Shown here: positions 3,245 to 53,836 of the stretch, piece by piece | Position numbering within the stretch: the stretch's first letter is position 1 | Layout: each line of letters starts with the position of its first letter | Source of the DNA: Eledone cirrhosa | Lineage: Eukaryota | DNA: 64,000 bases | Direction of reading: 5' to 3' | Assembly (NCBI GenBank): GCA_964016885.1 | Contig: OZ024741.1 | Span: forward strand, 212,784,001-212,848,000 | Made by a program: the position numbers and the translations under genes | The notes under the pieces: model-generated | Told to the model about the DNA's origin: nothing | What the model saw: the letters and a program-made list of their open reading frames with translations, nothing else | Databases searched by the model: none

Positions 3245-6200
3245 ATGGATGTGTTAAGAGTAGGATGTTTGAATGCACGTGGCCTGGGCTCAACTTGGAA
3301 GCAAGCAAAGCTTCTAAATGACCTCAGGTCATGTAGTATAAATGTAATGGTTATCTGTGAGACTCGAATCAGCGTCATGCGGCAGCTGGCCCCCACCTTC
3401 GATGACTTTGAGGTGCATGCATCTCTCTGTCAACCTGGAGGTGGGGGTGGGGTTGTCGTGCTGCTGCAAAAACACCTGGGTCTTGCCGTACAGGTTGTGC
3501 ACTCGGACCCGGAGGGTCGTTTGTTGGTGCTAGACGTTGGCAGTAGTGAAAGTGCGGCCTTGAGACTGGTCGCCGTCTACTCCCCTTTCGGAGCTGAACG
3601 GCCCGACTTCTTCCAGCGTTTGGAGACTTTTCTGGGAACGTCGCGTTCCCTGCTTCTAGCGGGGGATTGGAATGACATCCTGGATGCACGTTGGGACTAT
3701 GCAGGAGCATGTCCTAATAGAGGGGGTGTAACAGCCTAGTAGATATCGACTAGATTTTCCAACTGTGCCTACCTGGACTTGGAGAAACCACAGTGGTCAA
3801 TCTAGATCTTACTTAGATAGATTCTTAGTTAGAAGTAAGGATAGGGACATATTAAGCTGTCCAGAAATGCGCACGGTTGGCTACACGGATCACAAATTAG
3901 TGACCTGCGTGGTCAATCTCGAGAAAACACATAGACAGGGTCCCGGTTACTGGAAACTTAATTTGTCTTTACCGGCAAAAGAGACTTACAGAAACCGGAT
4001 TAGCAGATTAGTTAAGGAGAGGTTGACGGGTGCAATCGTCAACAACCGATGGTGGGCATCTCTCAAAAGAGAGATTAGAACAGAATCAATAAGTTATAGC
4101 AAGATGTTAGCTGCCAATAGGAATAGAAACGAGAAAGAATTAACAGGTAAATTAGAAGAGGCAATCAAGAGCGAAGATGTGGCCAGAGTGCTGGCATCGA
4201 GAACGGCCTTGAACCAGTTTTTCGATGCAAAGCATGAAGGCTGCGTCATTCGAAGTAAAATACGTGCTCTAGGTAATGAGGGGGCCAAAGCCGTTGGATG
4301 GGCCCGCGTGACAGAAGCTAAAAGTGGAAATCGATCCACCATCCGGTCGTTGCAAGACGAAGATGGACGAGTGATCCGGGAGCCTAAGCAGATGTGCGAG
4401 GCCTTTCAAAAGCACTTTGCCCGATTGTTCGGGGGAGGCGAGGGTCCGGGCCGGGGCGTGGATTTCGGTCCATACCTCGACGGCCTGCCGCGTCTCTCGA
4501 ACAAAGAGGCAGAGTCCTGCGAGGGACCAATCTCGGCTGATGAGATCGGAGATGCGCTGAGCCAATGCAGCAGACGCAAATCTCCAGGTCTCGATGGTAT
4601 ACCTTACGAACTTTATTTAGCAATGCCGGTCTTCTTCTCCGAACTCCTCGAAGCGGTCTACTGCAATTGGCAGCAGAACGGGAGAATTCCTTGTTCTGTA
4701 GCCAAGGGCGTAGTCACGCTGGTGAGGAAGGACGAGAACAAGGGGGATAGTATAAATAATTTTCGGCCCATAACCCTGCTAAACACAGAGTTAAAGATTT
4801 TGGCCAAGGTGTTAGCAAAGAGGTTGGCGCTTGTCGTGGGTGGCCTGGTGGGAGATGCGCAGACATGTGCTATCCCATCCAGGTCCATTCACGATAACCT
4901 CCACCTCATGCGATACATCATAGAGAGGGTTGGCAACAAACCCGGCTTCGGTGGGGCCCTGATCAACTTGGATCAGTCTAAGGCCTTCGATAGGGTCGAC
5001 CATGGTTACCTGGATGCGGTGCTAGCGGCGGCTGGGTTCGGTCCTGTTTTCAGAGGCTGGATCACTGCCCTACATAGCAACCACATCTGTTCTAGGATCA
5101 AGGTGAACGGCTACCTTTCGAAGCCGTTCGAAATCACACGATCCATTCGACAGGGGTGCCCTCTCTCCTCCCTTCTGTACGTATTGACTCTCGAGCCTTT
5201 ACTGAGGAAGTTGGAGTTGTTGCAGGGTATCCCCCTGGAACCAGGATTGAGCAAAGCGGTGTCGGCCTACGCCGATGACGTAACAGTAATGGTATCAACC
5301 GACTCGGAGATCGAGGCGATCGGTACCTTACTGGAGGAGTACGAAAGGTTGTCAGGAGCGAAACTGAACCGGGAAAAATCCATCGGGCTGCAACTCGGAG
5401 CGTGGAGAGGAAAACCGATGCCTCCTGACGGTGTCGTCGGACACTGGACGGAGGGCCCGGTAAAGTTGCTTGGGGTCTGGTTTGGACCGGACCTCCAGGT
5501 GGAAAAGAACTGGAACGAGGTTACGAACAAGGTGTTTGCACTAACCCAGAAATGGGCCAAGTGTAAGCTGTCCCTAAAAATCGGGCGGAGGTGGCGAACA
5601 TTTACATAGCGTCCGTCACTTACTACCGCCTGACTGTCGTGCCTTGCCCTAAGGAAACACTCACCACCATGGAACGCATGCTCTTCCAATTTCTTTGGAA
5701 GAAGCGTCCTCCTATGGTGAGAATTTCCATCTGCTGCCAACAACCTTCGAAAGGAGGGCTGGGGATGCCGTGGTTGATGATGCGTAGGCACGCATTAAGG
5801 CTACGGCACCTACAGGTATTCCTCACTGGTCAACCGGTGTGGGCTCCGTTCGTGAAACGAGCCTTTCCGAGACTCGTCTCACTCACCGAGCTACAGTCCT
5901 GGGTCAAGCAAAGATCCGGAAAACTGGGAGACTGGCACACTGAGTGTGCTCAGGCGCTCAGGGCTCTCTGGCAAGCGGGCCGGGCCATCGGTGGAGAATC
6001 CACCTCATCATTCTATAGAGGGCTGGTGGCTAGCAGGGGCGATGACACCCTTGGAGAGTCGCTGGACATGGAAGAAGACGAACTGGCCAGCCTGTTCGGT
6101 AGGACTTTCGGCCCAGGACCAATGGACAACTTCCAGAAGTCACTGGCCTGGCAGTGCTACCGAGGGGCTCTACCCGTTCGAGAGAGGCTCTACAGACACG

Positions 6201-28609: not shown

Positions 28610-28661
<52 letters not shown>

Positions 28662-28705
28662 AAATGAGTCAGAACCCCGACGGCAGAGCTCACGCCGTTC
28701 GATAG

Positions 28706-28749
<44 letters not shown>

Positions 28750-28949
28750 CAAAAGCAATGTGGTAAGGAACCAGATGGAACATAACGCACCAGAGTACTC
28801 GATACTTTGGGTAGTAGAGTGGGTAATAGGAAACGAGTCAGAACCCCGACGGCAGAGCTCAAGCTGTTTCGACAGCTATATCTGGACTCTGAGTCCAGAA
28901 ATAGCTATCGAACCGGTGTGAGCTCTGCCGTCGGGGTTCTGACTCTTTT

Positions 28950-29008
<59 letters not shown>

Positions 29009-29469
29009 GAGCGAGTAGGACGCCGACGGCTGAGCTCAAGCCGTTTCGACGGCTAATTCTGGAATTAGTCCAGAATTAGCCGTCGAAACGGCTTGAGCTC
29101 ATATATATAAATTTATATATATATATATATATGTGTGTATGCGTGTGTGTGTATGTGTGTGTGTGTGCGTGTGTGTGTGTTGGACCTCCTTCATTTTCAA
29201 CGAAGATCGTTTCAGTTGTTCAATCAACTGACCAATCCATTCAGCAATTTAAGAAGAATGTTGTTGAACGTTTCACAGACACGTGTACATGTACCTTTAT
29301 CGTAATTCTAGGGAGATTTAGCGTGGCTATTTTGTGAAAAGGCTGAACTATTGAATTAATGTTGCAGTACATTTTGTATTATAGCACAAGTTGCTGAATA
29401 TTCCACAAACATGTGTACTGGTCATCTAATTGTCCAGAAGATTCAGGGTGAAAATTGGTTAATAGTATT
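28251..29469. repeat. Inverted duplication (~370-bp arms 28251-28620 / 29100-29469) enclosing three hairpin-element pieces
   Basis: aatactattaaccaattttcacc / ggtgaaaattggttaatagtatt; only a few mismatches between arms. Confidence 0.9.
28748..28953 (-). mobile_element. Fold-back hairpin element (family C) in (TA)n; further pieces at 28658-28708 and 29006-29100
   Basis: Homologous to 48649-48843 and 50136-50251; internal palindrome centred on tctggactc-t-gagtccaga. Confidence 0.8.
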
Positions 29470-48648: not shown

Positions 48649-48650
<2 letters not shown>

Positions 48651-48843
48651 GGAATGAGCAGGACCCCGACGGCTGAGATCCAGCCGTTTCGACGGCTAAT
48701 TCTGAGTCCAGAATTAGCCGTCGAAACGGCTTGAGCTCAGCCGTCGGGGTCCTACTCGTTCCTATTACCCACTCTACTACCCTAAGTATTGAGTACTTTG
48801 GTGCGTTATGGTCCATCTGATTCTTACTACATTTCCTTCGTTA
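48649..48843 (+). mobile_element. Family C fold-back element carrying the 3' half of a hammerhead
   Basis: Palindrome 48649-48764; GACGGCUAAUUCUG(AGUC)CAGAAUUAGCCGUC-GAAA-CGGCU(UGAGCUC)AGCCG-UC-GGGGUCCU; unique 3' tail to 48843; in (TA)n. Confidence 0.8.
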
Positions 48844-50051: not shown

Positions 50052-50135
<84 letters not shown>

Positions 50136-50137
<2 letters not shown>

Positions 50138-50247
50138 CGAAGGAAATGTGGTAAGGAACCAGGTGGACCATAACGCACCAAAGTACTCAATACTTGAGGT
50201 AGTAGAGTGGGTAATAGGAACCAGTAAGACCCCGGGTCTTACTGGTT

Positions 50248-50251
<4 letters not shown>
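50136..50251 (-). mobile_element. Family C element truncated and folded back at the predicted HHR cleavage site
   Basis: taggaaccagtaagaccc-c-gggtcttactggttccta, centre 50233; tail homologous to 48765-48843; in (TA)n. Confidence 0.8.
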
Positions 50252-50321
<70 letters not shown>

Positions 50322-50999: not shown

Positions 51000-51560
51000 T
51001 CTGCCAGAATCGGTACAGGACCGGTGAAAATTTTTTGCGGTATTTAGTTAGCGCTCTTTCAATTCCGAGTTCAAATGAGGCTGAGGTTACCTCTACTTTT
51101 CATTTTTCCGGGCTCAATATAATAATGTGTTAATCAATTATGAGGACCAATGAAATCGAATTACACTGTCCCCACAAATTTCTGGTCTTGTGCCTAAATA
51201 TGACCCCATTTGGATTGGCAGTATCGGTAGAGCGTCGCACAATATGTATCGTGACATTGAGTTACAGCCTTTTGCGTTCTCAGTTCAAATCCCGCCGTGG
51301 TTAACTTTGCCTTTCTTCCTTACGAGGTCGATAAAATAAGCACCAGTAATGCACTGGGGTAATTGCTGGCCTTGTGCCAAAAGTAGAAACAATTATTTAA
51401 GTGTAAAAGGTGTCAAATTGATAGATTGGTTAAAACGTCGGATAGAATACTTTGTGATATTGGCTCCGACTCTCTGTCCTCTGGGTTCCAGGCCCACCGG
51501 GGTCAACTTTGCCTGTTATCCTTTCGAGGTCTATAAACATAGTACCAGTCTAGTAACAGT
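51000..51560 (+). mobile_element. Cluster of three tandem SINE copies
   Basis: Three successive gagttcaaat/gggttccag...gcct...atcctt.cgaggtc.ataaa...taccagt-type units. Confidence 0.7.
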
Positions 51561-53587: not shown

Positions 53588-53836
53588 GTATATATATATA
53601 TGCATATATATATATATATAACGAAGTAAGTGTGGTAGGGAACCATATATACATATATACGTGTATTATGTATGCATCATCTAAGTATGCATGCATGCAT
53701 ATGCATATGTATATATCTATATATATACATATATAAGTGTATGTACATATAGACACATCTACATGTAGATGTGTCCGTGTCTGGGTATATACATATATAT
53801 ATATATATATATATACATACACATACTTGTATATGT

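Follow-up and report, generated by a model that had tools for sequence, protein, structure and literature searches.

Insertions of a Hydra-clade Penelope-like retrotransposon in Eledone cirrhosa include a minor class ending at the predicted hammerhead cut

The 64,000-nucleotide (nt) window analyzed here (Eledone cirrhosa, assembly GCA_964016885.1, contig OZ024741.1, positions 212,784,001 to 212,848,000) contains a short palindromic copy of a Penelope-like element (PLE), at 50136-50251, that turns back on itself at the bond where the hammerhead ribozyme of its family is predicted to cut. We number positions from that bond, +1 being the first base on its 3' side (GUC followed by G) and -1 the C. 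A palindrome search of the window found an exact inverted repeat at 50214-50252 (19-nt arms, 1-base loop) whose center, 50233, is +1 and the start of the sense arm; the inverted arm gets to +2. Followed along the minus strand, the copy runs from (TA)n through an 18-nt inverted arm ending in ...GACCC to GGGGTCTT..., a 79-nt tail and (TA)n again. The coincidence of fold-back point and predicted cut proposed in an earlier note on this DNA was thus borne out, as were the GAAA (48723-48726) and the GTC-GGGG (48743-48749) it had read in a sister copy. Across the family, a template RNA end at the predicted cut is well supported. We lean toward the view that both arms stop there through a self-cleaved template, and that the palindrome is the likely product of two target-primed reverse transcriptions (RTs) of one RNA, with their ends joined.

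The class to which the window copy belongs is small. Among 148 tail-bearing copies not picked for their 5' side (29 read-through-selected copies were excluded), the 5' end lay at -46 to -35 in 73 and at -1 to +2 in 11, the window copy among the latter. The remaining ends were at +3 to +19 (17), -12 to -2 (9), -34 to -13 (16), farther upstream (10) or inside the tail (12), in bins that are approximate because the automatic end-caller mislabels some diverged copies (5 ends at +14, and some inverted arms missed). Most templates ran through the predicted cut, and the cut site is a minor end point. The earlier note had expected a sharp peak of truncation and inversion points at GUC-GGGG if ribozyme cleavage made these ends; such a peak, minor in size, was found in two junction classes. 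As a general cause of the palindromes, however, cleavage was not supported: both arms ended at the cut in 242 of the 20,169 arms reaching +1 (about 1%, oriented genome-wide count), and cut ends made up just the 11 of 148 in the sample.

Small as it is, the peak is far from random. A pattern for short palindromes had 342 matches in the assembly versus 22 for its reversed control, and in 32 of the 49 short palindromic insertions listed neither arm ended more than 1 nt from +1 (p about 5e-32, given that 9 of 210 possible cells would qualify). Here and below, total match counts are whole, and row tallies ("listed" copies) were made by eye on the first 100 matches in genome order. At the junctions of 100 listed cut-site copies there was no spacer in 34, a single A in 12, T in 10, G in 5 and C in 2, two bases in 8, a GAC/GTC-like overlap in 17 and three other bases in 12; untemplated bases stood between a full CCCC and a full GGGG in 42. 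An assembly artefact was considered for this class and rejected, since the 242 copies have differing flanks and variants and lie on many contigs.

A second junction class comprises copies without an inverted arm, joined straight to (TA)n. The 100 listed rows collapsed to 52 places, from which we dropped 13 with a short inverted arm, one internal deletion and two tandem duplicates, leaving 36. Seventeen of these end at +1 (2 are ambiguous through CpG decay), compared with at most 4 at any other of the 13 end places (p 2e-10; 9e-9 under a strict count). Because copies that lack an inverted arm also peak at +1, microhomology does not explain the peak.

Microhomology joining, through the CG overlap of CCCCG and CGGGG, or later central deletion of longer palindromes would make the match to the cut a coincidence. 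The 34 no-spacer junctions are plain CCCCGGGG, which 2 nt of CG microhomology could equally explain, and the 17 GAC/GTC-like overlaps point the same way, as does an upstream control window (-20 to -39; 1,358 matches) in which microhomology joins dominate. The window copy itself fits a shared C that makes -1 as valid an end as +1, a one-base ambiguity when its junction is read alone; contigs of 4 sequencing runs cover the family but none listed spans this copy, so its junction is without independent read support. However, no recurring added-base class was seen in the first 50 control matches listed, and the no-spacer class holds 31 T-type copies versus 3 C-type (two subfamilies told apart by a downstream variant), though the overlap is identical in both. 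Microhomology alone, which the earlier note had recognized as a threat to its model, fails for the (TA)n-joined copies and for those with untemplated bases. It may feed the no-spacer class; as an account of the whole it is largely refuted, and we regard it as very improbable.

The ribozyme at issue is a full hammerhead, which the earlier note had allowed might exist in no family member. Its 5' half is present in long members, at 4,687 exact matches in the assembly. Among 100 cores listed, 76 are U3-A8 and 2 are U3-G8, while 21 have an initial C and 1 an initial G; position 7 is variable, as expected. U3-A8 is a described variant of PLE hammerheads, for which a palindromic loop III and action as dimers are also reported in the accessible text of PMC4209133. 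In a natural copy (locus L196), the minimum free energy fold is the three-way junction of a type I hammerhead, in which the core and the GAAA stay unpaired and the cut triplet is of the UH form. Long T-type copies carry U3 cores in all but one case seen (the exception is L236; L228 is ambiguous), and long C-type copies mostly carry C3-A8. The mispaired C3-A8 subfamily makes up about 1 in 5 long arms (L009, L026, L037, L184, L202 and others), and its apparently impaired ribozyme did not stop its spread.

Judging from the genomic end points, self-cleavage is the likely cause of the +1 template ends. These ends match the predicted hammerhead bond exactly, the added bases are like those left in R2 when RT runs off a cleaved template (PMC3774820), and the ends tend to be shared by both arms: symmetric cut-site copies number about 210, compared with about 70 mixed copies, in which only one arm stops at the cut and its partner stops in the main zone (22 of the 100 listed, out of 311). 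Independent arms would predict the reverse by about 50-fold, so the end appears to be set by the RNA molecule and not by a random pause. T-type copies supply 79 of 100 listed symmetric cut-site copies versus an expected 53%, corresponding to rates of about 1.5% for T-type and 0.39% for C-type.

Several observations weigh against cleavage. T-type is also more frequent among long copies, which could account for roughly half of the difference between the subfamilies. A tail marker that tags the U3-A8 sub-lineage of C-type (in 4 of 4 such long copies and 0 of 6 C3-A8 copies) occurs in only 1 of 15 C-type cut-site copies and is therefore not enriched, and the non-inverted +1 ends divide into 9 T-type and 8 C-type, where the genotype link fails. 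The link between cut-site ends and core genotype is thus mixed, two of three tests having failed, although trans cleavage within dimers could blur it. The canonical C3-G8 core (CUGANGA) was absent from the 100 cores listed; the L196 hammerhead fold is no more stable than shuffled sequences (z -0.47); and Rfam gave no match in the window at gathering score and only one chance match at E<=10 on L196:4600-5100. For an Anolis PLE, the available part of PMC11167929 reports that cleavage is not needed in vitro and that no reads end at the cut. Of the earlier note's claim that self-cleavage made the template RNA end, the end at the cut is well supported; self-cleavage as its maker is likely.

A less probable alternative, to which we still give some weight, is that the +1 ends are real but non-catalytic: a small share of the RNAs would be blocked or cut at this place, whether by the folded hammerhead junction, by a protein bound there or by a nuclease of the host, and both RTs on such an RNA would halt there. 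The unenriched U3-A8 marker suits this explanation, as do the C-type copies, mostly mispaired C3-A8, that provide 8 of the 17 non-inverted +1 ends, and the position of +1 between the foot of stem III and the top of stem I, which is GC-rich. Yet an RT stalled by stem III should already have passed the unpaired C at -1, whereas single G or C spacers number 7 and single A or T spacers 22 among the 100 junctions listed, and symmetric copies are rarer in the subfamily whose stem III is stronger (0.39% versus 1.5%). No comparable class occurs at the foot of stem II in the first 50 of 1,358 control matches listed, and a random pause would yield asymmetric copies, whereas symmetric ones prevail.

How the two arms arise is a separate matter. 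In the twin-priming scheme that we lean toward, a GIY-YIG endonuclease would nick both (TA)n strands, RT would start internally at +19 on one strand and +98 on the other, and the second cDNA would displace the first from the RNA. Both RTs would run off the same RNA 5' end, often adding an A, and the two cDNA ends would be end-joined and then filled in. The RNA 5' end would set the class of insertion: ribozyme-cleaved RNA would give +1 (the symmetric class of about 1%), a possibly capped start from a promoter inside the ribozyme would give the majority class at about -41 to -45 from RNA without a core and incapable of cis cleavage, and uncleaved long precursor RNA would give the far-upstream class. 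Arm starts are fixed at +19/+20 and +98 across the family, and lone tail-less arms lie between TA runs at L254, L258, L265, L276-L278, L280, L281 and others, as well as in the window (28658-28708). In 87 arm pairs, the inverted arm exceeded its partner by more than 3 nt in 25 (15 of these by over 10 nt), was shorter in 22 and equal in 40, and 50 pairs had both arms ending in the main zone; about half of 100 listed long arms form 25 head-to-head pairs. In each of the three classes the two arms of an insertion tend to end alike, which argues that they came from one template. According to the accessible portion of PMC11167929, the Anolis PLE (PAc) uses two internal RT start sites in vitro, and both target strands are extended.

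The earlier note instead had a single RT run off the cleaved RNA end and the cDNA snap back to make the inverted arm. In its favor, the two arms stop at one common point and mostly carry the same subfamily variants; R2 protein yields snap-back junctions at a low rate (PMC11331408), and self-priming was proposed before for PLE palindromes (PMC3846280), to go by the available parts of both papers. Snap-back would, however, have to halt at the same +19/+20 point in almost all copies, could not yield lone tail-less arms or the 25 inverted arms longer than their partners, and predicts one-sided added bases, whereas single added bases on the top strand were 12 A and 10 T among the 100 listed, with no strand bias. 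Furthermore, a loop of 0-1 nt without adjacent complement presumably cannot prime. Later deletions could account for the unequal arms, which tempers this argument, but not for the remaining points. We therefore find snap-back quite unlikely and favor two target-primed RTs. Three further observations concern the junctions and arms: poly(A)/poly(T) runs beside the U-tract at -42 to -44 mark the junctions of L002, L004 and L074, as if RT had slipped at the template end; the arms of L060 carry different subfamily variants (possibly a two-template insertion or gene conversion); and L042 has a full tail on both arms, both having started at +98.

The main end point, near -41, may have its own explanation. 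Reverse transcriptases that reach a cap copy it as an additional G. Among non-inverted copies, 11 of 14 informative cases have, just before A-41, a G that neither the template nor the target supplies (3 have C, none A; T is uninformative), and such a G occurs 4 times at all other places (p 7e-4). Examples are L279, L282, L284 and L304, and the corresponding site of the sister copy is 48704-48705. In inverted copies the base at that junction is G in 22, C in 14 and A in 5, a count confounded by the TCTG of the partner arm. The extra G suggests a capped RNA start at -41, inside hammerhead stem II. The TTAGTC/TCATTT at this end point we take to resemble an initiator, and the stretch at -28 to -17 is presumably like a motif ten element, judged against the Drosophila consensus. 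Having no core, RNAs starting at -41 would be unable to cleave in cis, and this would account for the rarity of the cut class.

The element is assigned by its motifs to the Hydra clade of PLEs, as a new member of that already known clade. Family copies were located by exact sequence patterns, and a 37-nt tail pattern has 18,590 exact matches in the 3.0-Gb assembly. The common copy consists of an inverted arm from the fixed +19/+20 point, a variable junction, a sense arm and the 79-nt tail to +98, with TA on both sides; some copies continue beyond +98 into an open reading frame (ORF). L196 has an inverted copy followed by two hammerhead cores 3,118 nt apart that flank a 786-codon open frame, a pseudo-long terminal repeat (pLTR) tandem. 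This ORF (L196:4879-7236), downstream of the tail, putatively encodes in a single frame a reverse transcriptase (YRDD) and then a C-terminal GIY-YIG-type motif (VIY..YIG), with RWR, DKT, a CNCPDRSIC linker (CxCx5C), CNLC (CxxC) and CKH (CxH); CCHH is absent, and only one C lies between VIY and YIG. As far as the accessible text of PMC8557442 goes, the marks of the clade are RW[KR], DKT, a CxCx5C linker, no CCHH, and CxxC and CxH around a conserved E and N. The L196 protein has 2,054 relatives at E<=1e-20, at about 40% identity, the best match carrying PF01541; a Pfam scan of the parent protein itself returned no family. Insertion into (TA)n, the inverted 5'-truncated copy and the one-sided tail are all present in the family. 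Fragments of other diverged Hydra-like PLE families occur in the same genome (L199:9099-9998, L205:7907-8533 and L106:1382-1960).

Further copies lie in the window (Table 1). The sister, of the common class, holds the 3' half of the hammerhead only (the GAAA, stem III and GUC-GGGG to 48749), with no core. The designation of the 79-nt stretch as a tail, the region between RT starts, follows the available part of PMC11167929. At 51064-51549, three diverged copies of a 70-nt repeat, ~200 nt apart, likely belong to another interspersed element.

Table 1. PLE-related features of the window, in window positions
Feature	Position	Strand	Remark
Sense arm of short PLE copy, +1 to +98; begins at 3' strand of hammerhead stem I	50136..50233	-	92% to sister
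79-nt tail, +20 to +98, on one arm only; spans gap between two inferred RT start sites	50136..50214	-	
Inversion center, first base after predicted cut (GUC, then G)	50233	.	arm 19, loop 1
Inverted arm, +2 to +19; ends at the family's fixed +19/+20 point beside (TA)n	50234..50251	+	
(TA)n target, left	50058..50135	.	
(TA)n target, right	50252..50319	.	
Sister copy, common class: inverted arm 48649 to about 48704; sense arm from about -41 (48705) through predicted cut (48745/48746) to tail end	48649..48843	+	
Older diverged palindromic copy with tail, read through cut	28747..28953	-	82% to sister
Lone arm without tail, about -31 to +19, flanked by TA runs; the inverted-arm type on its own	28658..28708	-	
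Palindromic copy without tail	29007..29101	.	
27-nt tail tip inside (TA)n	53619..53645	-	

Taken together, these patterns permit a tentative broader interpretation, which we consider possible but would not call probable: the genome may keep a three-class record of germ-line PLE RNA 5' ends (hammerhead-cleaved at +1, capped at about -41, and uncleaved), with the inverted repeat arising when an enzyme dimer reverse-transcribes the same RNA twice, from two internal starts. If so, the cut-site class would count as evidence of cleavage by a PLE hammerhead in vivo, and a promoter would split the ribozyme, sparing the main transcript from being cleaved. The family supplies hundreds of natural insertions that stop at the predicted cut, with tens of thousands of others to set beside them. 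A literature search that took in few subscription papers, and not the supplement of PMC11167929, found no earlier report of an end census at a PLE hammerhead cut or of the twin-priming reading.

Comparisons with known systems follow the accessible portions of the papers cited. Hydra-clade PLEs such as Hydra-1_Obim (Craig et al. 2021, PMC8557442) have the same C-terminal GIY-YIG, RW[KR], DKT, CxCx5C and CxxC/CxH marks and lack of CCHH, and share with our element a unit of about 3 kb, a (TA)n target, a type I hammerhead, an inverted 5'-truncated copy and a one-sided tail. Unlike Hydra-1_Obim, which is listed with a canonical core, the family described here has a core of the U3-A8 or C3-A8 type, with a stem II that is long and a stem III of 6 bp; its tail is 79 nt, compared with 30-40 nt in Hydra-clade PLEs, and it is present as tens of thousands of 100-200-nt copies. 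The accessible passages on Hydra-clade PLEs contain no census of end points. Metazoan non-LTR (long terminal repeat) retrozymes (PMC7229834; bioRxiv 10.64898/2026.07.22.740005) are likewise short non-coding PLE-derived sequences tied to type I hammerheads, but they form tandem arrays with a whole ribozyme per unit, whereas the insertions here are dispersed and head-to-head, mostly without a core. We rejected a non-LTR retrozyme identity for the short copies, which are dispersed and coreless; a 257-nt tandem in L106 is coreless too.

The Poseidon PLE of Anolis, PAc (Frangieh et al. 2024, PMC11167929), resembles our proposed scheme in its two internal RT starts bounding the tail, in the cutting and extension of both target strands, in its predicted dimer and in the use of uncleaved RNA as the main template. 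It differs in that no reads were reported at its cut and cleavage was without effect in vitro, whereas a minority of genomic copies here end exactly at the predicted cut. A parallel for such ends is offered by the HDV (hepatitis delta virus)-like ribozyme junctions of R2 (Eickbush et al. 2013, PMC3774820), where 5' junctions also record the cut and untemplated bases are added as RT runs off. In R2, however, cleavage makes the normal full-length 5' end, whereas here the predicted cut is a minor end, in another class of element with another ribozyme, and marks both arms of a palindrome.
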